A stretch of 40,071 bases of DNA, taken from a virus. This document shows, piece by piece, positions 23,864 to 38,446 of this stretch. The notes under the pieces were generated by a model that worked only from the letters and a program-made list of their open reading frames with translations, searched no databases and was not told the DNA's origin. Each line of letters starts with the position of its first letter. Position 1 is the first letter of the stretch. The position numbers and the translations under genes are program-made. Where the stretch lies: UHGV virus genome UHGV-2079066; one strand, written 5' to 3'.

Positions 23864-24400
23864 TTACAACGATCTAATCTCTTTCGATAAACAGTCCAAC
23901 ATTTTATTAGCCTCCTTATCAAAATTATGACCAGCGTTTAGAATTATATTCTTCGCCAATTTCTTATCGTCAACTTCACCTGACTGTATTTTGAAGAAAA
24001 CAGAATTGGCTGGTTTCAGCAATTTTCTAGATTCATCAAACATAACGCTAATCTCAGGAAAATAAACACCAGAGATTAAAATAATTCTATCACCAACTCC
24101 TTTATACTCAGGGTTTTTACTGAGAATTTCGTCTGATTTATCGCCAATGTCCTCAGATTTAAAACACCCATCAATACAATTTATCCAGCTCATATGATTG
24201 GCAAAAAGCAATTTTTTATAAAGTATTAATGCCTCATAAAGCTGTTCACCCTTTTCAATTTTCCTTCTATTTCTTTCTGAGCGCCACTCATGCGACTGCC
24301 TACTACTGTTCTGGAGGTAACTTGTAAGAGAAGTTATCAATGTACCCACAAAAATCCCCAAAGCAGCAATTAATGCAACATTTTCTTTAGTCAGTTCCAT
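23864..24400 (-). CDS. hypothetical single-pass membrane protein, AT-rich moron between Q and holin
   Basis: seen: ATG 24400 preceded by GGTGA; MELTKENVALIAALGIFVGTLITSLTSYL (TM) then ~150 aa soluble domain; low GC. Track ORF extends 38 codons upstream across a terminator hairpin. Confidence 0.55.
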   Translation of the reverse strand: MELTKENVALIAALGIFVGTLITSLTSYLQNSSRQSHEWRSERNRRKIEKGEQLYEALILYKKLLFANHMSWINCIDGCFKSEDIGDKSDEILSKNPEYKGVGDRIILISGVYFPEISVMFDESRKLLKPANSVFFKIQSGEVDDKKLAKNIILNAGHNFDKEANKMLDCLSKEIRSL

Positions 24401-24411
24401 ACTATCACCAT

Positions 24412-24434
24412 AAAAAAACCCCACCGAGGTGAGG
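24412..24434 (-). terminator. tR'-like intrinsic terminator downstream of candidate late promoter
   Basis: seen: minus strand CCUCACCUCGGUGGGG followed by U7. Confidence 0.5.
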
Positions 24435-24452
24435 TTATCATAGTGATCGATA

Positions 24453-24480
24453 GTTATACAAAGCCCATCATTGATGTCAA
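24453..24480 (-). promoter_or_regulatory. candidate late promoter (pR'-like): -35 TTGACA, 16-nt spacer, -10 TATAAC
   Basis: seen: TTGACA at 24480-24475 and TATAAC at 24458-24453 on minus strand, immediately downstream of Q. inference: Q-modified readthrough. Confidence 0.4.
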
Positions 24481-24523
24481 ATATACACAAATACGGCAAC
24501 ATTGCAAACATCATGACGCTAAA

Positions 24524-25370: not shown

Positions 25371-26399
25371 TTAAGCTTTCGCAATTACGCCGATCGCCAG
25401 CGCCCGATCCATAAAACGCAGTAGCAGCTCAAGCTGCGTACCATGCTTCTGCTCGAATGCTGGTACATCGGCGTGTAACTCGTCGTGGCACTCTCTGCAC
25501 AGAGGGATCACGAAGAGGTCATGGGCTTTTGTTGCTGTACCACCCATACCGTGCCCTACGATATGGTGCGGATCATCTGCTGGCCGTCGGCAACACTCAC
25601 AGGGTTGTGTTTTAACCCAGCGGGTGTACGTCTCATTTATCCAGCGGCGACGTTTTGGCCTGAGCATAAAAGACTCTGGCGACTCCGGATCAACAGAGAG
25701 CGTGAGGATCTTCTTCGCCTTCTCCTGCACAAGTCTGGTTGCTGACGAGGAAGGCACTATGTCGCTTTCCCTCATGACAGAACGGATCTTCTCATCCGGA
25801 AGGCGCAACCCTTTGTGCGCAACGCTTTCCGGAATAACATCAGCCAGGTCGTTTCTGACCATCCACCAGCACAGTTCAGGAAGCGTCAGGATATGCGACT
25901 CGGGAAAACCAGAATCACGCCGAATGACTTCCAGAATCCAGGATACCAGGTTTCCGGCCGCTATACCTGCAAGCTGTTCGGTATGCTGCCCCGACAAAGT
26001 GTGATCGCAATGCCAGCACAGGCGAATACTTCCTGGTGGGTGCCGCATTGTTGTGAAGTTCTTGTCGTGCCACGTTGAATGTGGCCACTGGCATTCAAAC
26101 CGATTACTCAACCATTGCTCAAGGGAAGGAAGCCCACCGGCACGCTGAATAACCCTCTCATTCTCGAAGACCTGACGCATTACCGGATCATCAGCTAGCG
26201 GCTGAATGGCTGCCGGAACAGCCCCGGTACTGAATGACGCCATTTCTTCTGGTTCAGGCTCGAGCAGAACGCGACCACGCATGAAGAGGTGCATCAGTTC
26301 CGTACCGGGACGGAACAGCACAATCCCCATACGATGGGCGATCTCGGGGGTAAGCAGAGCTCTCACGCGACCTGCCCCCTGGCAATGTGTTCTGCCCAC
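25371..26399 (-). CDS. DUF968-like protein with C-terminal HNH-like Cys/His motif
   Basis: seen: ...CECCRRPADDPHHIVGHGMGG...CRECHDELH; 342-codon ORF. Start is uncertain (overlaps upstream gene). Confidence 0.55.
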   Translation of the reverse strand: MGRTHCQGAGRVRALLTPEIAHRMGIVLFRPGTELMHLFMRGRVLLEPEPEEMASFSTGAVPAAIQPLADDPVMRQVFENERVIQRAGGLPSLEQWLSNRFECQWPHSTWHDKNFTTMRHPPGSIRLCWHCDHTLSGQHTEQLAGIAAGNLVSWILEVIRRDSGFPESHILTLPELCWWMVRNDLADVIPESVAHKGLRLPDEKIRSVMRESDIVPSSSATRLVQEKAKKILTLSVDPESPESFMLRPKRRRWINETYTRWVKTQPCECCRRPADDPHHIVGHGMGGTATKAHDLFVIPLCRECHDELHADVPAFEQKHGTQLELLLRFMDRALAIGVIAKA

Positions 26400-27059: not shown

Positions 27060-27446
27060 TCAGGCGGCTGCACCCGCCGGTTCATATCTGCTGATCGTTA
27101 TCTCTACCCGACCTTTCGGCACTACGGGTCCCCATTCCACCAGCATGCGCTTAATCTGGCTGTCGTCTTCCCAGACACCCGCATGCGTCAGCGCGTCAAA
27201 CAGGGCTTTGTTGTAATTATCGATATCCCGGCGGCGCGCATCTGGCGGGTACAGAGTGATTTCTACCGCAGCCAGTTCAGTCGATGGCTTCGGGAGACGT
27301 CGTAATTGCTCAATGATCGCCACGCAGGCAGCGCTCTGGTATTTACGGCCATCAGCGCTAATGAGGTGACGACCGGCCAGCGGCCCCTTGTTAGGGGCGC
27401 GCCAGTAAGTGTTCACGCTCGGAGGAAAAGGCAGGATCAGTTTCAC
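27060..27446 (-). CDS. rusA: Holliday-junction resolvase RusA
   Basis: seen: MKLILPFPPSVNTYWR...RRRDIDNYNKALFDALTHAGVWEDDSQI matches recalled RusA motifs. Confidence 0.85.
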   Translation of the reverse strand: MKLILPFPPSVNTYWRAPNKGPLAGRHLISADGRKYQSAACVAIIEQLRRLPKPSTELAAVEITLYPPDARRRDIDNYNKALFDALTHAGVWEDDSQIKRMLVEWGPVVPKGRVEITISRYEPAGAAA

Positions 27447-28762
27447 GCGGCCTCTCCCCGCATATTGCGAACAAGTTCAGAAGCGGCAGTAATGATTTCG
27501 CTGGTGGCCGTTCGTTCCAGCCAGAGTTGATTGATGTTGGCTTTCAGCTTGTTCTGCTGTGATTCATCCAACATGTCAGCGCCATCTACCTGGTTGAACA
27601 CAATCCCAACCTCCAGTGGCCAGATACGGGACTCGGGAAGCGGATCCGCTACTGGTTTAGCTTTCTCACGGATGTGCATGCGGATCTGGCGAATATTGGA
27701 CCATCTGGAAACATCCAGGCTTCCCATGGCTGCAATGAAATCAGTGCTGTTCATGCCATATTCACCGGATGCTTCAAGGGCAACAGTGCGAATACGTTCC
27801 GACATATCCAGGCGCACTGCAGCGTCATCGAATTCAATCGACAACAACCACTCATCCACACCGAACAAAATACTCTCACGAATAAGCAGCTTCGCTTTGT
27901 CGATCGTTAATGGTGATACCTGAGTGAATTCCGGTGCTTCAACAGAATCCGCCGCCCAGGTATGCCCAAACTTCGATTCACTGAATGTGTATTCTTCTTT
28001 ATCGCCAAACGCAGCTCTAACGCATGCCCACGCCTCGACGCCGCTGACATCAAAAATATCTTTCTGAGTGAGTGGCAACTCAGCTTCTGGCTTATCAGCT
28101 GCAGGAGGTGTGGCAGTTGCAGGTTGAGACTTGCTGGCAGCAAATTGCGCCAAAGTCATAAACGCCCGCCCTTTTGCCTCCAGTTCTGTGCGGTTGATAT
28201 AGCTGAACCGCTCACCACGCCACGACTTATCGAATACAGCTATGGCACCGGCAAAAAACGCGCTGGTGGGTTTCTGTTTTTCGTCAGCAGGTACAAACCA
28301 CACAGGCAGATCGAACCCAATACGACCACGAATGAATACAATGTGATCGGCATCTTCTGGCCACCACGTTTCACTCGGCGCGGCTTTTATCAGGAATACA
28401 TAGCGACCGCCCTTCTCGCGCTGGGCTGCTGCGTAGTTCATGATATGCGTCATGCCGGTGATCGCCTGCTTCTCGTGGTACTGCGAACGGCTATACGGAG
28501 GGTTGCCATAACCAGCGCCGCCCAGTTCTGCCAGACGTTCAGACCAGTGCTGTGTCAGCGCGTTATCTTCGGCGGTGTACCATGCTGGGCACTTCGCGTT
28601 GTCGTCGTCAGCAAACAAGTCCAGAACTAATGGACCAAATAGCGCGTTGATCCCCCAAAAAAGCAGATCCGGTGTCCGCCACTGATCGCCAACTTCTTTC
28701 AATTCGTGAGCTGGTTTGCTACGCAGTGCCGCCAGCACCTGGCAATATTTATTGGTCATCAT
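27443..28762 (-). CDS. phage-type DNA N6-adenine methyltransferase (Dam) fused to ~225-aa uncharacterised C-terminal domain
   Basis: seen: DQWRTPDLLF...LDLFAD...GYGNPPYS in the first ~215 aa; the remainder has no motif I recognise. Start overlaps stop of replication gene (ATGA). Confidence 0.75.
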   Translation of the reverse strand: MMTNKYCQVLAALRSKPAHELKEVGDQWRTPDLLFWGINALFGPLVLDLFADDDNAKCPAWYTAEDNALTQHWSERLAELGGAGYGNPPYSRSQYHEKQAITGMTHIMNYAAAQREKGGRYVFLIKAAPSETWWPEDADHIVFIRGRIGFDLPVWFVPADEKQKPTSAFFAGAIAVFDKSWRGERFSYINRTELEAKGRAFMTLAQFAASKSQPATATPPAADKPEAELPLTQKDIFDVSGVEAWACVRAAFGDKEEYTFSESKFGHTWAADSVEAPEFTQVSPLTIDKAKLLIRESILFGVDEWLLSIEFDDAAVRLDMSERIRTVALEASGEYGMNSTDFIAAMGSLDVSRWSNIRQIRMHIREKAKPVADPLPESRIWPLEVGIVFNQVDGADMLDESQQNKLKANINQLWLERTATSEIITAASELVRNMRGEAA

Positions 28763-29625
28763 GAACGGAACCCCGAATTTTCTGGCAGTGAGTAATCAAC
28801 ACTCTGGAAGTTTGCGCGGCTGGCTGAGTTAGTCTCCCATTTGCCGTTAACGCGTTCAGGCCGGCCAGCACTGGACCATTTGGTCGCGCTTTGCAGGTAA
28901 CCAGGGAAGTTTTTTGGAATGAACAGAGTTGCCGGGCGGAGGTATTGCGCCTGCTCGCTATCACGCCAATCGGCATTTTTGTAATCCACTACCAGGCACA
29001 GGTCATCAACCGTGAATTGTTCCCGAAGACGGGCGCGAATATTCTCCAGCGACGTACTGCATACCTGGTAGCGTGAGCCAGTTGTCTGGTTCAGGTAAGA
29101 CAAGACCTGTCTGGCCTGATCAGTAATCACAACCTCAGGGTCGGGTTGCGCCGCAACCGGACAAGAGGGTTTTGAAGTTACTTGTGGATCTTGTTTTGAT
29201 TTTACTGACGGATCCCCGCCAGATTCTGACGGGTCAAAACCATCGTTTTTGCCAGATTTCGACGGGTCAGTTTTTGAGGCGTCAAATTTTGATGCGTCAG
29301 ATTTTGACGTGTCAGAATCTGACAGTTGAGAAAATGCGGCAGTCTGAAGTTTCGCCACATTCAGCCGATACACGTTCGAAGCATTACGGTTACCATTACG
29401 GCGCTGTGTACGTGTGAGCCAGCCATCTTTTTCAAGCTTTGCGATTGCCGTTCTGATAGTGCTCGGGCCTGCGCCAAGCTGGCGAGCAATAGTTTCAATT
29501 GACGGCCAGCACACACCTTCATCGCTGCTGAAGTCAGCAAGGCGAGCCATGATCGCAACACTGGACAACTTCATGCCCGACGCTGCGCAACCATCCCATA
29601 CGTAGCCGGTTAATTTAGTGCTCAT
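28759..29625 (-). CDS. replication initiation protein (N-terminal HTH, repeat linker, conserved phage C-terminal domain)
   Basis: seen: N-terminal ...WPSIETIARQLGAGPSTIRTAIAKLEKDGWL...; Ser/Asp/Lys repeat linker encoded by the iteron DNA; position after cro/CII as for lambda O. Confidence 0.7.
   Translation of the reverse strand: MSTKLTGYVWDGCAASGMKLSSVAIMARLADFSSDEGVCWPSIETIARQLGAGPSTIRTAIAKLEKDGWLTRTQRRNGNRNASNVYRLNVAKLQTAAFSQLSDSDTSKSDASKFDASKTDPSKSGKNDGFDPSESGGDPSVKSKQDPQVTSKPSCPVAAQPDPEVVITDQARQVLSYLNQTTGSRYQVCSTSLENIRARLREQFTVDDLCLVVDYKNADWRDSEQAQYLRPATLFIPKNFPGYLQSATKWSSAGRPERVNGKWETNSASRANFQSVDYSLPENSGFRS
29201..29328. repeat. iteron array (candidate origin of replication) inside the replication gene
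   Basis: seen: 6-7 copies of tGAcG-N-GTCA-like units, e.g. ctgacgggtca, tcgacgggtca, ttttgaggcgtcaaat / ttttgatgcgtcagat / ttttgacgtgtcagaa at 16-nt spacing. Confidence 0.55.
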
Positions 29626-33073: not shown

Positions 33074-33901
33074 ATGTCTCAGTTAGACAGCGGCACCTTC
33101 AAGCAGGTCAAAGACCTGGTTCTTTCCGGTTATCACCTGGATGATATTCAGGACCTGGCTTGCCCGACCGCATTACTGCCAGAGGGTACTGGCGTTGAAA
33201 GCCTCGAGCGTTTTTCTCTGGAGCGTTTCCGCTTTCGTGGCGCAATGACCACAACCAGTATTGACGACTTCGCCCGTTATTCTAAAGGTTATGCCAGCGC
33301 CAGCGAGCCAGCTCGTTGCTTCATTGACGCTGACAACATGACCGCCCGTTCAGTGTTCAACATCGGCACCCTGGATAATCCAGGTCACGCCGATAACGTT
33401 GCTTCAATCACCCTGAAGAAAACCGCCCCGTTCCGAGCGTTACTGCAGATCGATGGTCAACGCCTGAAGCAAAAGCAAATCGCGGAATGGCTGGAAGACT
33501 GGAGCGATTACCTGCTGGCGTTTGATGCTGATGGCAATACGATGCAGATTTCACAGGCGGCTCAGGCTGTGCGTCGTATCACTATTCAGCAAGCAACACA
33601 GCAGGACCATGAAACTGGTGATTTCGCTGGTAAAAAATCTCTGATGCAAAGCGTTGAAGCAAGCAGCAAAGACGTAATGCCTGTGGCGTTCGAGTTCAAA
33701 TGTGTGCCGTATGAAGGTCTGGGTGAACGCCGCTTTAGCTTGCGTAACAGCCTGCTGACCAGCGATGAACCCTGCTTTGTTCTGCGCATCGTCCAACTTG
33801 AAGCCCAGGAAGAAGAGATCGCCAACGAATTCCGCGATTTGCTGATCAGCAAGTTCGAAGGTGAATCAGTGGAAACTTTCATCGGTAACTTTAAAGCCTA
33901 A
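33074..33901 (+). CDS. DUF2303 (YfdQ-like) protein
   Basis: seen: 275 aa, AAGGA SD. The family assignment is recalled from memory of CPS-53-type early regions and is unverified. Confidence 0.6.
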   Translation: MSQLDSGTFKQVKDLVLSGYHLDDIQDLACPTALLPEGTGVESLERFSLERFRFRGAMTTTSIDDFARYSKGYASASEPARCFIDADNMTARSVFNIGTLDNPGHADNVASITLKKTAPFRALLQIDGQRLKQKQIAEWLEDWSDYLLAFDADGNTMQISQAAQAVRRITIQQATQQDHETGDFAGKKSLMQSVEASSKDVMPVAFEFKCVPYEGLGERRFSLRNSLLTSDEPCFVLRIVQLEAQEEEIANEFRDLLISKFEGESVETFIGNFKA

Positions 33902-33913
33902 TTGCTCTGCATT

Positions 33914-33937
33914 AAATCCCCGGCGCCGCGGGGATTT
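33914..33937 (+). terminator. GC-rich hairpin (attenuator-like) after DUF2303 gene
   Basis: seen: aaatccccggcgccgcggggattt then TATT; weak U-tract. Confidence 0.4.
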
Positions 33938-34029
33938 ATTGAAGCGTAATTCCATTAATTATCGCCAACCGGCGAGGGATTCGTACAACCAAAATCTGCG
34001 CGGTGCAGCGCGCCAATATGGGGAAAACC

Positions 34030-34569
34030 ATGAGCTACATTCAGACATTATCCGGCAAACATTTTAATTACCTCGATATCCAACAGGACGATATCGTGAT
34101 CGAGGATATTGCTACCGCTTTGTCTCATATCTGCCGTTTTGCAGGGCATCTTCCTGAGTTTTATAGCGTCGGCCAGCATAGCGTTTTAACCAGCCACCTC
34201 GTTCCGCAGGAGTTTGCATTAGAAGCACTGCTTCATGATGCCGCCGAAGCCTACCTGCAGGATATCCCCTCGCCTCTTAAGCGCCTGCTACCGGATTACC
34301 AGGCGATCGAAGCTCGCGTAGACGCTGCTATTCGCCAGAAATTTGGCCTACCGACGGAACAACACCCAACTGTGAAATATGCCGACCTGGTGATGCTTGC
34401 CAGCGAACGCCGAGATTTTGAGATTGACGAAGGTTCCATTTGGCCATGCCTCGAGGGAGTTGTCCCAACGGATTTATTCATTATCAACCCAGTTCGTCCT
34501 GGCCAGTCATACGGCATGTTCATCAATCGCTTTAACGAGTTGATGGAGCAGCGCCAATGCGCCGCATGA
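34030..34569 (+). CDS. HD-domain phosphohydrolase (YfdR-like)
   Basis: seen: ...ALSHICRFAGH...LLHDAAEAY...; ATG 34030 with GGGGA SD. Track start 34003 is a GTG. Confidence 0.75.
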   Translation: MSYIQTLSGKHFNYLDIQQDDIVIEDIATALSHICRFAGHLPEFYSVGQHSVLTSHLVPQEFALEALLHDAAEAYLQDIPSPLKRLLPDYQAIEARVDAAIRQKFGLPTEQHPTVKYADLVMLASERRDFEIDEGSIWPCLEGVVPTDLFIINPVRPGQSYGMFINRFNELMEQRQCAA

Positions 34570-34733
34570 AGGTAAAAGAACTCGTAGCGGAGGCGTTTGC
34601 CTCCGTTGCTGAATTGCCACCAAAACATGCGCCGCTTATGCGCGAAGTCGCCACCAGACTGGACGCTACGTTCGCAGCATTAAAAGAGTCTCTGGTGCAA
34701 CTGGAACAGGAACGTAAAGGTAAAACGCCATGA
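34557..34733 (+). CDS. small ORF (58 aa) translationally coupled on both sides
   Basis: seen: ATG 34557 overlaps the HD gene end; stop overlaps next ATG (ATGA at 34730-34733); GGAG at -9. Below the track cutoff. Confidence 0.35.
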   Translation: MRRMKVKELVAEAFASVAELPPKHAPLMREVATRLDATFAALKESLVQLEQERKGKTP

Positions 34734-34984
34734 CCGTATTTGAATATCTCCAGGCTCATCCGAATACCACCAGCGGTGAAATCGCCAAAGGTATGAACAA
34801 AAAGACACCCGCGGTCGCCGGAGCATTATCTCAGCTCTATGGCACCGGCCGGATCGTGAAGTCTGGTGTTCGCAAGGGCATTCCAACATACCGCATTAAC
34901 GATATGCCGTTTGGTTGCAGTAACAGCCTAACCATGATGTTTAACCAGCTATTGAATAGGGCCAGACAGGGAGCAGCCCAATGA
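34730..34984 (+). CDS. small DNA-binding-like protein (winged-helix type)
   Basis: seen: 84 aa; ...TSGEIAKGMNKKTPAVAGALSQLYGTGRIVK... is HTH-like. Confidence 0.55.
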   Translation: MTVFEYLQAHPNTTSGEIAKGMNKKTPAVAGALSQLYGTGRIVKSGVRKGIPTYRINDMPFGCSNSLTMMFNQLLNRARQGAAQ

Positions 34985-35457
34985 CAGCACTCAACAAACA
35001 GGCGCTGCGTGAAGCGGCGCAGGAAGAAATAATGCTCCGCTCTGTCAGTGATACCTCTGACGCCTGGCAGGATGAAGCAAGCCCGGAAGCTGTGCTGGCG
35101 CTGCTGGATGAGTTGGAAACCGCAGAGAAGCGAAACGCTGAATTACAAAGTGAGAATGCATACATCCGCAACCGGAACAAAGAACTGGACCTGTTAATTG
35201 GGAAAAACATTCTGGTCATGCAGGCTGCAATTATCGAATGGCAGGCAACTGGCGACGCTAAGAATGGGCTGGCATGGATTTATAACACGCTGTTTGGACC
35301 TGGCGAATTGCCTGACGAATCTGAGAAAGATGCTCAGGCCTACTTTGACCGCAAATATGCACCGATTGACGAAGAGCTTATGGCGCTTCACAAGTGGTTT
35401 TGGGAACAAAGTGAGGCCGAACGTGCCGCCGCTGGCATTGGCGTAAAGGGGGAATGA
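34981..35457 (+). CDS. Ead/Ea22-like protein
   Basis: seen: MTALNKQALREAAQEE..., coiled-coil acidic; ATGA overlap with upstream gene; GGGAG SD. Confidence 0.65.
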   Translation: MTALNKQALREAAQEEIMLRSVSDTSDAWQDEASPEAVLALLDELETAEKRNAELQSENAYIRNRNKELDLLIGKNILVMQAAIIEWQATGDAKNGLAWIYNTLFGPGELPDESEKDAQAYFDRKYAPIDEELMALHKWFWEQSEAERAAAGIGVKGE

Positions 35458-35458
35458 G

Positions 35459-36163
35459 ATGGATAAATTTACGAAAGAGCAACAGGTGCAAGCAGTTTAC
35501 GATTTAAAGGTTGGTTACACCCTGGGGCATGCTGATATTGCAATGCTGAAATCAATGGCCCGCCAACTACTCGCCAGCATGGAGCAGGAGCCTATGGCTT
35601 GGGTGACTATGCAGAAGGAATTTTGCGATGATGAACGCACGGCAATAACCAATCGGGTTGACGCAGATCGCTACAGCATTAGTTGCTATGATCTGACGCC
35701 ACTCTACGCAGCACCACAGTTACCGCATCCAGCGGTACCGGATGAAATTGACGTTAATGACCCTGCACTCGACACGCATAGAAAATGGATGGCAGAGGGC
35801 TGGAATCGTTGCCGCGCCGCCATGCTTCAGGGTAGCCAACCTGTAAGTAAGCGCGAACAGGTTCGCCGTGAACACGCTGAATGGTCAGATAAGACTTTCG
35901 GCGATGTTGGTCCCGTTGGCCCGTTTAAACACCTGTCGAAAGAGGCGCTGGAAGCTGCCGCAGAACCTGACGACCTCAGCGAGTGGGCTGACATGCAGTT
36001 CCTGTTATGGGACGCCCAGCGGCGCGCCGGTATCAGTGACGGTGAAATCACAGCTGCGATGGAAGAAAAGCTGAAAGTGAACATGGCGCGCCAGTGGCCT
36101 GAGCCGAAAGACGGGGAACCTCGATTGCATATCAAAGAACAGTCAGAGCAGGAGAAAAAATAA
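35459..36163 (+). CDS. protein with C-terminal dATP/dGTP pyrophosphohydrolase-like (DUF550, MazG-like) domain
   Basis: seen: ...EHAEWSDKTFGDVGPVGPFKHLSKEALEAAAEPDDLSEWADMQFLLWDAQRRAGISDGEI.... Confidence 0.7.
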   Translation: MDKFTKEQQVQAVYDLKVGYTLGHADIAMLKSMARQLLASMEQEPMAWVTMQKEFCDDERTAITNRVDADRYSISCYDLTPLYAAPQLPHPAVPDEIDVNDPALDTHRKWMAEGWNRCRAAMLQGSQPVSKREQVRREHAEWSDKTFGDVGPVGPFKHLSKEALEAAAEPDDLSEWADMQFLLWDAQRRAGISDGEITAAMEEKLKVNMARQWPEPKDGEPRLHIKEQSEQEKK

Positions 36164-36165
36164 GA

Positions 36166-36420
36166 ATGTTTAGCCTGATTCGGCGCGGTCAAATCTACAC
36201 GGACAGTAGCAACTGGCCCGTAATTATCCATAGCTGTAGCGATCACTCGGTCCGAATCAAACGCAATGATGGCGGGCTGAGAACGATTAGCATCAAACGC
36301 TTTAACGAAGATTTTGAACGAGTGGAACATGATGAGTATCGCAAAATATGTGCCGAAATAGAGCAGGAAACAAACCTGAAAAACCTACGTGCGATGCGTC
36401 GCGGCAAGATTACTGAATAG
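36166..36420 (+). CDS. hypothetical small protein
   Basis: seen: 84 aa, AGGAG SD, tightly packed in operon. Confidence 0.6.
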   Translation: MFSLIRRGQIYTDSSNWPVIIHSCSDHSVRIKRNDGGLRTISIKRFNEDFERVEHDEYRKICAEIEQETNLKNLRAMRRGKITE

Positions 36421-36441
36421 CCAAACAGGAGAATATTTAAC

Positions 36442-37005
36442 GTGAACAACTTAATGATCGACCTTGAAACTATGGGCAAAAAGTCGAATGCCCCTATTGT
36501 CTCCATTGGTGCCGTGTTCTTCGATCCGCAAAGCGGTGAACTGGGTCAGGAGTTTTACACCGCCGTTAACCTTGAAAGCGCTATGGAGCAGGGAGCGGTG
36601 CCAGATGGTGACACTATTCTGTGGTGGTTAAGACAAAGCTCAGAAGCACGATCAGCAATCTGTGTTGATGATGCGATGCCGATATCGTCTGCCCTATCTG
36701 AACTGAGCCATTTCATTAACCGACATTCTGATAACCCGAAATATTTAAAAGTTTGGGGCAATGGAGCTACTTTCGACAACGTTATATTGCGCGGCGCATA
36801 TGAGCGCGCCGGCCAGGTTTGCCCGTGGCAATTTTGGAACGATCACGACGTCAGAACCATCGTCACATTAGGCAGAGTTGTGGGTTTCGATCCTAAGCGA
36901 GATATGCCATTCGATGGGGTTGCACATAACGCACTGGCCGATGCCCGCCACCAGGCCAAATACGTTTCAGCAATTTGGCAACGTCTACTGCCCCACCAGC
37001 AATAA
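36442..37005 (+). CDS. DnaQ-like 3'-5' exonuclease (DEDDh type)
   Basis: seen: MIDLETMG (Asp-x-Glu), ...VWGNGATFDN..., ...HNALADA...; GTG start with AGGAG SD. Confidence 0.75.
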   Translation: MNNLMIDLETMGKKSNAPIVSIGAVFFDPQSGELGQEFYTAVNLESAMEQGAVPDGDTILWWLRQSSEARSAICVDDAMPISSALSELSHFINRHSDNPKYLKVWGNGATFDNVILRGAYERAGQVCPWQFWNDHDVRTIVTLGRVVGFDPKRDMPFDGVAHNALADARHQAKYVSAIWQRLLPHQQ

Positions 37006-37267: not shown

Positions 37268-38446
37268 ATGGCAGCCAGGCCAAGAAAAAGAGAATACCGC
37301 CATCTACCCGAATATCTAATATTCGATAAAGATCGCGGCGTTTATAAATTTACGCTTATAACTGGGAAAAAAAAGAATATCGGTAAAGACAGGGCTGTAG
37401 CGATCGCTATAGCCCGTGAATACAACCTCAGAATGAGGCCTACAAATGTACCATCAGTAGAAATACTTGTCCGTGAATCTGGCGGTGTAACGGGGGAGGC
37501 AAAACCATTTGCTGAACACGTAGATCATATTATGGAGCGGGCGATTGAGAATGAGCGCCCTTCACAGAATACACTCGACGATTGGAACAACGATGCTCTG
37601 AGGGTAAAAGAATTCTTCATCAGCATACCAGCTTGCGATATTGAGCTGGAGCATGTGAACGCCTATATAAACCACTACCATGCCGAAGCATCAGCAAACG
37701 TACAAAACAGGAAAGTCAGCTTTCTTAAAAAATTATTCTCCTATGCGGTCGATGAATCGCTAATGTTCGATAACCCGGCAACCCGTAAAAAAATGCGTAG
37801 GATAGAAGAGAAGAAACGCCAGCGCCTCTCACTTGATAACTTTAAAGCTATCAGGCGCGCAGCTGAACCATGGTTACGGACCGCGATGGATTTGGCATTG
37901 CAGACAACACACGCACGATTGGAGGTTTCACGGATCCGTTACTCCATAAGAGAGCCTAAAGACGGCATCTGCGGGTGTCTATGGTTAGCACAACCAGAAA
38001 ACGGTATTTATGGGACGCTATACATCCACAGGCAGAAAGTGCAAAAAAAAGAGGCATCTCACGTTGCAATCCCGATTGGGGAAGAGTTGAAGCGGATAAT
38101 TGACGATAGTCGAGATAATGTTGCCAGTCCGTTTGTCGTTCACAGAATCCCAGAACGGCAGGTTAAACGCAGCAAAGAGGTTTCACACCCTACTCAAGTT
38201 GCACCGGATTATTTAAGTCGGTCGTTTTCAGCTACGCGTGACATGCTAGGTTTATGCGACCATCTACCGATGGACGAAAGACCAACCTTTCACGAAATCA
38301 GAGCGCTGGCTGCGCATCTTTTCGATCAGCAGGGTATCGATCCACAAGGGCGAATGGCACATAGCGATGCGAAATCAACAAAGATCTACACGCAAAACCA
38401 TATCGACTGGGTAGTAGTTCCTCATGGCGAGATTCAGACAGCATAA
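37268..38446 (+). CDS. int: tyrosine integrase
   Basis: seen: 392 aa; C-terminal HEIRALAAHLF...KIYTQNH carries the His-x-x-Arg and catalytic Tyr of the R-H-R-Y family; adjacent to att. Confidence 0.9.
   Translation: MAARPRKREYRHLPEYLIFDKDRGVYKFTLITGKKKNIGKDRAVAIAIAREYNLRMRPTNVPSVEILVRESGGVTGEAKPFAEHVDHIMERAIENERPSQNTLDDWNNDALRVKEFFISIPACDIELEHVNAYINHYHAEASANVQNRKVSFLKKLFSYAVDESLMFDNPATRKKMRRIEEKKRQRLSLDNFKAIRRAAEPWLRTAMDLALQTTHARLEVSRIRYSIREPKDGICGCLWLAQPENGIYGTLYIHRQKVQKKEASHVAIPIGEELKRIIDDSRDNVASPFVVHRIPERQVKRSKEVSHPTQVAPDYLSRSFSATRDMLGLCDHLPMDERPTFHEIRALAAHLFDQQGIDPQGRMAHSDAKSTKIYTQNHIDWVVVPHGEIQTA

Follow-up and report, generated by a model that had tools for sequence, protein, structure and literature searches.

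The subject of this work is a gene in the virus genome UHGV-2079066, a stretch of 40,071 nucleotides (nt) that is hereinafter called the window. The gene belongs to the early-right (nin-like) region of a lambdoid prophage, where it lies between the genes for a replication initiator and a RusA resolvase, and encodes a Dam-type DNA methyltransferase of 439 amino acids (aa) in which the catalytic domain is followed by a long C-terminal extension. The protein is almost certainly a composite of three evolutionarily independent units on flexible linkers, namely, a phage Dam domain, a rare all-helical module and a small tail that elsewhere occurs as a free-standing protein. The key features are summarized in Table 1.

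The coding sequence is a single open reading frame (ORF) with an ATG start and no internal stops. The 1320-nt ORF is unbroken in 24 complete E. coli genomes with 96-99.7% nucleotide identity, among them that of strain Nissle 1917 (WP_001704140.1, named 'phage N-6-adenine-methyltransferase' in RefSeq), as well as in phages Eeyore, Flotzy and Phi06_2987 (73-75% protein identity). A first-pass annotation, made from the sequence alone, had described a Dam-type methyltransferase with DQWRTP and NPPY motifs that is longer than the usual phage Dam, represents a fusion and follows a replication initiator. All of this holds: the phage Dam profiles PF05869 and TIGR01712 are matched far above their cut-offs, the 439 aa compare with 217 aa in SfV and 175 aa in VT2-Sakai, the fusion is genuine, being intact in complete genomes and in phages, and the preceding initiator gene, with HTH_36 and Phg_2220_C domains, overlaps the Dam gene by 4 nt. 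The split of the ORF on resequencing, which that annotation had considered as a potential refutation, does not occur in any of the 24 genomes.

Architecture of the composite protein

The boundaries between the parts were derived from the alignment of long and short relatives and then placed at exact residue positions. The Dam domain ends at about residue 209, and the remaining 230 aa comprise two linkers and two or three folded units, that is, a middle module (residues 227-368) consisting of sub-parts A and B, and the tail. The first-pass annotation had put the boundary at about residue 215 and had taken what follows for one unrecognised domain of about 225 aa. At least two evolutionarily independent units are present instead, and it is only the middle ~140 aa that lack a family match, the last 62 aa having hits to PHROG 111, PHROG 16025 and a PADLOC profile. 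The same annotation had allowed for the C-terminus being a known Dam-associated domain, which applies in part to the tail, a recurrent although uncharacterised companion of Dam, and not to the middle module, which is undescribed in the resources searched.

The linkers are hypervariable in sequence and range from 17 to 45 aa in length among 24 representatives of the family; the amino acid identity to the Eeyore protein is 24% for linker 1 vs 86% for the Dam domain. The AlphaFold2 model of residues 222-439 is confidently all-helical, and the low predicted local distance difference test (pLDDT) values of both linkers, together with a predicted template modelling (pTM) score of 0.46, describe the extension as a set of predicted independent units on flexible tethers. 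The ratios of nonsynonymous to synonymous substitution rates (dN/dS), estimated by the Nei-Gojobori method for the window gene against the Nissle and Eeyore genes, are 0.044-0.047 for the Dam domain, 0.13 for sub-part A (vs Nissle), 0.055-0.23 for sub-part B, 0.08-0.11 for the tail and 0.93 for linker 2 (vs Eeyore). All folded parts are under purifying selection, from which the linkers are exempt.

The extension is acidic, with a net charge of -14 over 213 aa (-6.6 per 100 aa) and an isoelectric point (pI) of 4.6, and each of the sub-parts is acidic as well (pI 4.25-5.04). Searched whole and in pieces against Pfam (E<=10), NCBIfam (E<=1) and PADLOC (E<=1), it yielded just the Dam+tail profiles. 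Searches of the PDB sequences with the whole protein and with a profile of the module gave no credible match, the best being a phosphoribosyl-ATP pyrophosphatase at E=0.015. The extension contains no catalytic or DNA-binding signature and matches no helix-turn-helix (HTH) or other DNA-binding family or fold.

Table 1. The composite Dam gene, its parts and other annotated genes of the window (pLDDT from the AlphaFold2 model of residues 222-439)
Feature	Position	Strand	Evidence or remarks
Whole ORF, composite Dam methyltransferase, 439 aa + stop	27443..28762	-	Unbroken in 24 E. coli genomes and 3 phages
Dam N6-adenine methyltransferase domain, residues 1-209, terminal helix ELEAKGRAFMTLAQFAA	28136..28762	-	PF05869, TIGR01712, motifs
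Linker 1, residues 210-226, Pro/Ala/Ser-rich, SKSQPATATPPAADKPE	28085..28135	-	Hypervariable; pLDDT <50
Middle module, sub-part A, residues 227-282	27917..28084	-	Alignments; pLDDT 66-78 (residues 230-275)
Middle module, sub-part B, residues 283-368, five helices, conserved W.NIR.LR in the last helix	27659..27916	-	pLDDT 86-96 (residues 284-367)
Linker 2, residues 369-377, KPVADPLPE	27632..27658	-	pLDDT <50
Tail, residues 378-439, three helices	27446..27631	-	PHROG 16025, PHROG 111; pLDDT 81-93 (residues 383-434)
Upstream neighbour, replication initiator, HTH_36 + Phg_2220_C	28759..29625	-	Pfam; PHROG replication initiation/primosomal
Downstream neighbour, RusA resolvase	27060..27446	-	GTG start overlaps the Dam stop (GTGA)
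Early-left, DUF2303	33074-33898	+	
Early-left, dATP/dGTP pyrophosphohydrolase domain protein	35459-36160	+	
Early-left, Rv2179c-like 3'-5' exoribonuclease	36442-37002	+	
Integrase, after the early-left region (33074-37002)	37268-38443		

The Dam catalytic domain

Residues 19-199 match PF05869 (E=4.5e-42, 144 bits vs the Pfam cut-off of 28.1), and residues 16-197 match the NCBIfam equivalog TIGR01712, phage_N6A_met (203.8 bits vs the cut-off of 97.05). The DQWRTP sequence at positions 26-31 corresponds to the DxWxTP motif, and NPPY at positions 87-90 to the catalytic motif IV, (D/N)PPY. Both motifs are kept in the alignment with M.EcoVT2Dam, itself a PF05869 member, which is 33% identical to the Dam domain; the identity to the SfV Dam is 75%. 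The target reported for M.EcoVT2Dam is GATC (PMC6602927). The window domain is complete and, judging from family membership, is very probably active on GATC; it most likely methylates this site on both phage and host DNA. The window contains 188 GATC sites vs 156 expected, and these are neither depleted nor clustered. Literature searches produced no usable account of SfV Dam or ST64B Sb44 activity, or of the Nissle prophage methyltransferase or the extension.

Many phage records of this Dam family carry an erroneous label, 'phosphoadenosine phosphosulfate reductase'. It is attached to the Dam genes of NC_004313 (ST64B sb44), NC_003444 (SfV dam), NC_021857, NC_031940, PP925821 (Eeyore) and PP925827 (Flotzy), and appears to stem from PHROG 33262. 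The window protein covers just positions 283-492 of the 495 positions of this PHROG, suggesting that the latter was built on a fusion of phosphoadenosine phosphosulfate reductase with Dam and that the annotation error is spreading.

The middle module and its hosts

By sequence comparison, the middle module belongs to no described family in the domain libraries searched: it has no match in Pfam, NCBIfam, PADLOC, the PDB sequences or BFVD, and no credible structural relative. It is also rare. When 1.84 billion representative proteins were searched exhaustively with HMMER, 19 clusters containing the module were recovered, 11 of these at E<1e-10, and its taxonomic range is limited to Enterobacterales prophages. 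The module is present in 4 of 50,697 phage records and in none of the plasmid records; when one genome from each of 185,579 species was scanned for the pattern, 23 module loci were detected, essentially all in Enterobacterales, with Pantoea the commonest, and IMG/VR contains 328 matches.

For the locus census, which was based on BLAST comparison with a small hand-made set of reference proteins, 103 loci were fetched and reduced to 24 representatives at 90% identity. The IMG/VR part of this sample consists of the best 80 of the 328 hits, so that genes closely related to the window gene are over-represented in the following counts of architectures: Dam+A+B+tail in 83 loci (8 representatives at 90% identity), ParB+A+B in 11, Dam+A+B in 4 and ParB+A in 3. 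The tail is not found on a ParB-like protein in any of the 103 loci. The sub-parts also occur separately, A alone after Dam in P0144, and B alone as a free-standing 122-aa ORF directly after the initiator in locus L136, a single 2.9-kb contig.

The ParB-like hosts of the module (P0075, P0123, P0126, P0128 and AH07 gp48) come from prophages of Pantoea, Erwinia and related bacteria, possess the DGHHRY motif and an HTH_ParB domain, match PHROG 1033, and carry the module, without the tail, at their C-terminus. Among the loci with a recognisable upstream gene, a homologue of the window-type Phg_2220_C initiator precedes the module gene in 83 of 89 Dam-type loci and in 9 of 10 ParB-type loci. Comparison of these loci indicates that two unrelated proteins that act on DNA, encoded in the same phage slot, acquired the module independently. 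Its portability between Dam and ParB-like proteins is new.

Sub-part A contains a near-invariant motif, lPL..I..SG.E.WAC..AaFGdK..Y..ESK..HTWAADS..P, in representatives that are otherwise 35-40% identical, and this near-invariance speaks for a conserved and specific partner or ligand. The window protein matches the definition of the A/B family, with SG.E.WAC..AAFG.K.EY.F.ESK..HTWAADS at residues 240-274 and W.NIR.LR at residues 354-361. In L008 and P0121, the identity of the module falls to ~46-50%, and it is still in frame.

Several apparent variants were discarded. P0012 is not a standalone module+tail protein, given the Ns in its scaffold, and P0003-5 and P0137-P0143 are parts of longer proteins, being either C-terminal fragments or calls from internal starts. 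In a 3.1-kb metagenome scaffold (L137 231-1351), the sub-part B-only ORF P0133 is convergent with, and overlaps, a 293-aa Dam gene on the opposite strand, which is probably an assembly artefact.

Additionally, the slot between the initiator and RusA genes can contain a homologue of the DpdA-type tRNA-guanine transglycosylase. In Pantoea phage AH07, this homologue (gp49; L009 5444-6196; PHROG 887, E=7.6e-97) is located beside the ParB-like+module gene, as it is in L035 (Erwinia persicina), and in L027 (Pantoea dispersa), it adjoins a Dam+module gene. The presence of this homologue hints that these temperate phages modify their DNA with 7-deazaguanines.

The tail and its free-standing relatives

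Residues 380-434 match PHROG 16025 (85 positions) with E=7e-13. The tail also matches PHROG 111 (E=1.8e-21) and the 297-aa PADLOC methyltransferase profile PDLC03332, both of which model Dam+tail proteins. The BLASTP comparison with a standalone 85-aa member of PHROG 16025 shows 41% identity over 59 aa (E=4e-17). The members of PHROG 16025 are free-standing 'hypothetical proteins' of 85-98 aa from Klebsiella, Raoultella and Enterobacter prophages and form, at 90% identity, at least 921 clusters.

In each of the 9 loci displayed (L127-L135), the standalone gene shares 4 nt with the start of the gene for a 620-660-aa C5-cytosine methylase (PF00145), and in Klebsiella phage 5 LV-2017 (L118), it lies directly before the gene for a 715-aa C5 methylase; the pairing is found in 10 of 10 loci examined, which represent three replication-module types. 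This gene pair appears to be uncharacterised. Comparison of the profiles links the Dam tail to a small protein coupled to a C5 methylase, a connection that is new. A gene for a C5 methylase of the same family (PHROGs 23072, 116 and 29443) comes immediately after the Dam-tail fusion in Eeyore, Kp4866-6, L008 and 19 IMG/VR loci, and in the window, Nissle and ST64B, RusA follows the Dam-tail gene and there is no C5 methylase. The C5 methylases beside PHROG 16025 contain a large insert between the conserved PF00145 blocks.

Length classes and the exchange of the cassette

The relatives of the window protein fall into three length classes: a short one of ~175-217 aa that consists of Dam only (SfV, Stx phages, VT2-Sakai), a medium one of 292-317 aa with Dam, a linker and the tail (ST64B Sb44, Kp4866-6, P0013), and a long one of 439-448 aa, rarely up to 481 aa, in which the middle module is added. 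The medium proteins P0013 and P0053 (292 aa) are encoded between the same 288-aa initiator and RusA, and lack the middle module. Over nt 1-625 and nt 1129-1320 of the window gene, their DNA matches it with 96.5% and 97.9% identity, respectively; between these flanks, the window gene contains 503 nt vs an unrelated 62-nt linker in P0013 and P0053. Linker 2 is the right-hand boundary of the 503-nt cassette.

As the alignments indicate, the middle module is an optional cassette. Both additional units are evidently accessory and not required, because fully intact relatives exist without one or both of them. The possibility that the module and the Phg_2220_C initiator always occur together was considered and rejected, the same initiator being found with a module-less Dam+tail protein.

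Neighbouring genes and other observations on the window

Genes of this region overlap by 4-8 nt; at the initiator-Dam junction, the overlap of stop and start is ATGA. All architectures found in the slot share a peptide ending in G-E/T-A-A (the window at 27443-27460, P0075, P0144, P0145, P0127 and P0132). The window DNA at 27443-27460, GAGGCCGCGTGA, includes the GTG with which the downstream gene starts and, probably, the ribosome-binding site of that gene, so that the common ending likely reflects a conserved gene junction rather than protein function.

Within the initiator gene (29253-29316, minus strand), a 15-bp unit, CAGATTTTGACGCGT, is repeated in 4.3 tandem copies with 79% matches and encodes a repetitive peptide stretch of the initiator. 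The repeats resemble iterons and, by analogy with lambda O, the phage replication origin is probably located inside the initiator gene.

A 216-aa ORF without a Pfam match (23864-24514, minus strand) is flanked by the Q antiterminator gene and the lysis region, a position typical of a moron or accessory gene; the segment 24001-25000, where it is located, has a GC content of 0.41, the lowest in the late region. The DUF968/HNH gene is intact in the window (25371-26399) and frameshifted, according to the annotation, in the Nissle 1917 prophage (L001 8397-9393). In Nissle and some relatives (L126), an N6_N4 methyltransferase gene follows Q; none was seen in the scanned parts of the window.

What the additional units might do

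All carriers and neighbours of the two additional units are DNA-modification or DNA-handling enzymes, that is, Dam, the C5 methylase and ParB-like proteins, with a DpdA-type enzyme in AH07, L035 and L027. Because these units are acidic, carry no catalytic or DNA-binding signature, are dispensable and keep such company, we tentatively propose that they are tethered, non-catalytic protein-binding adaptors of phage DNA-modification enzymes. Specifically, unit 1 (residues 1-209), a complete phage Dam, would methylate GATC in the DNA of both phage and host; unit 2 (residues 227-368) is a rare acidic all-helical module in two parts that moves as a cassette; and unit 3 (residues 378-439) is a copy of the small PHROG 16025 protein that elsewhere is translationally coupled to a large C5-cytosine methyltransferase. 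Units 2 and 3 would tether or assemble Dam, the C5 methylase and the ParB-like protein (in the presence or absence of DpdA), either among themselves or with components of replication, so that phage DNA could be modified efficiently as soon as it is made. We consider this proposition as a whole, adaptor role included, to be possible rather than probable, and the adaptor role taken separately to be slightly more doubtful.

Several points weigh against it. The argument for an adaptor role is architectural throughout. The module is dispensable beside the very same initiator, in the P0013 and P0053 loci, and its co-location with this initiator could reflect nothing more than linkage within a mosaic hot spot. 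The full-length AlphaFold2 model is poor over the Dam part, for which the alignment is shallow, and contacts between the extension and Dam cannot be read from it. The characterised M.EcoVT2Dam shares just 33% identity with the Dam domain, and the GATC specificity is assigned at the level of the family. Finally, the tail is under purifying selection in the window despite there being no C5 methylase, which implies that it must either act without that enzyme or carry a signal of selection inherited through recombination.

A bolder version of the adaptor proposal, which we deem unlikely, is that the module and the tail are docking domains of an unrecognised phage 'modification hub' in which Dam, the C5 methylase and the ParB-like protein with DpdA would be coupled to the Phg_2220_C initiator or to the host replisome, so that nascent phage DNA would be modified at the fork before host restriction acts. 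If real, such a hub would be the counterpart, in bacterial viruses, of the eukaryotic mechanism by which maintenance methyltransferases are targeted in a replication-coupled manner.

Conversely, the fusion could be one of convenience, whereby the module and the tail have functions unrelated to methylation, such as regulation or anti-defence, and Dam merely carries them, stop codons being easily lost between tightly overlapping genes in a recombination hot spot. The units do exist without Dam (the standalone tail family, standalone sub-part B and the module on ParB-like proteins), the neighbouring genes overlap by 4-8 nt, the short forms indicate that Dam works in nature without either unit, and the module can be present or absent where the context is otherwise identical. 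However, the fusions are old and stable, given the 83 loci with 8 representatives and the frame that is maintained at ~46-50% identity of the module, and the constant company of DNA-modification and DNA-handling proteins is not expected of an unrelated function, which makes this explanation rather unlikely. The anti-restriction domain suggested in the first-pass annotation finds no family match: the extension matches none of the ArdA, Ocr and KlcA-type proteins in Pfam at E<=10, and its charge of -6.6 per 100 aa is an acidity that we take to be moderate and well below that of known DNA mimics.

In ParB proteins, the dimerisation domain is C-terminal and follows the HTH, and it is in this position that the module resides in the ParB-like proteins. 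The module, a compact helical bundle predicted with high pLDDT, might therefore render Dam and the ParB-like protein dimeric or multimeric, changing processivity or the handling of hemimethylated sites; yet, it has no structural similarity to the solved ParB C-terminal dimerisation domains, and we regard oligomerisation as improbable. Other methyltransferases are known to bind DNA through C-terminal extensions, Dam and the ParB-like protein are both DNA-acting, and sub-part B ends in a conserved basic helix (W.NIR.LR..IRE, with invariant N and R residues), all of which would fit a module for DNA binding, processivity or target recognition that changes the sites or the mode of methylation by Dam. 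Nevertheless, every sub-part is acidic, no HTH or other DNA-binding family or fold is matched, the members of 175-217 aa suffice without the extension, and near-identical genes encode Dam and the tail without the module; these observations, which speak equally against the specificity module that the first-pass annotation had envisaged, leave such a role distinctly unlikely. A replication helper, either a helicase loader, as also suggested in that annotation, or a partner of the initiator, would fill a gap in a phage without a lambda P or DnaC-like gene and would agree with the gene position and the translational coupling to the initiator. The same initiator, however, occurs without the module, and the extension shows no Pfam, PHROG, NCBIfam, PDB-sequence or fold similarity to lambda P, DnaC/IstB-like, DnaT or DnaD-like loaders, so that we give this role very little credence. 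Split or truncated database entries (P0003-P0012, L040 and L053, with P0012 and L008 split by Ns in the scaffold) could be taken to mean that the genes were joined by sequencing or assembly frameshifts, or that the gene is a decaying pseudogene. This is refuted by the ORF being whole in 24 complete genomes and in independent phage isolates, by strong purifying selection on all folded parts and by the frame kept at 46-50% module identity.

That a phage methyltransferase accretes extra domains would not surprise a specialist, and the enzyme itself is ordinary; its add-ons are undescribed in the domain libraries searched. If these add-ons serve as adaptors, the organisation of self-modification in temperate phages would become apparent from them, with a bearing on restriction evasion and on epigenetic effects in lysogens. 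The gene is carried by a prophage of E. coli Nissle 1917, a probiotic and an engineering chassis, which makes it easy to test and relevant for the methylome of this strain.

Comparison with known systems

Literature searches found no description of the composite Dam architecture, the module or the tail, and the window gene is best compared with the following systems part by part. The single-domain phage Dam proteins (SfV, 217 aa; M.EcoVT2Dam of VT2-Sakai, 175 aa) share with window residues 1-209 the profiles and the DxWxTP and NPPY motifs, and with the window gene the early-right (nin-like) placement in lambdoid prophages. They lack an extension at 175-217 aa, whereas the window protein, at 439 aa, is outside the ~170-220-aa range of the single-domain form.

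The PHROG 16025 proteins are encoded by a gene of their own that precedes the C5 methylase gene, and have ~25 extra N-terminal residues; the window tail is fused to Dam, with RusA next. Thus, the window tail matches the PHROG 16025 profile but is neither a free-standing ORF of ~85 aa nor coupled to PF00145.

The ParB-like proteins (PHROG 1033, AH07 gp48) have in common with the window protein the C-terminal A/B module after a variable linker, and their genes occupy the same slot, from the Phg_2220_C initiator to RusA/DUF968/Q. They differ in having an N-terminal ParB-type domain (DGHHRY, HTH_ParB) instead of Dam, never carry the tail, and have DpdA downstream in 2 loci. Their identification with DpdB is a lead rather than an established orthology: DpdA is found just downstream in only 2 ParB-type loci, and the DGQQR motif and SspE-like C-terminal domain of the published DpdB (PMC10164549) differ from theirs.

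The remaining counterparts are the medium-length Dam proteins of the ST64B Sb44 type (292-317 aa). These lack the 142-aa middle module, with a linker of ~60 nt where the window gene has the 503-nt cassette, and share with the window protein a Dam domain that is ~77-80% identical, a Pro/Ala linker, a 62-aa tail and RusA as the next gene.

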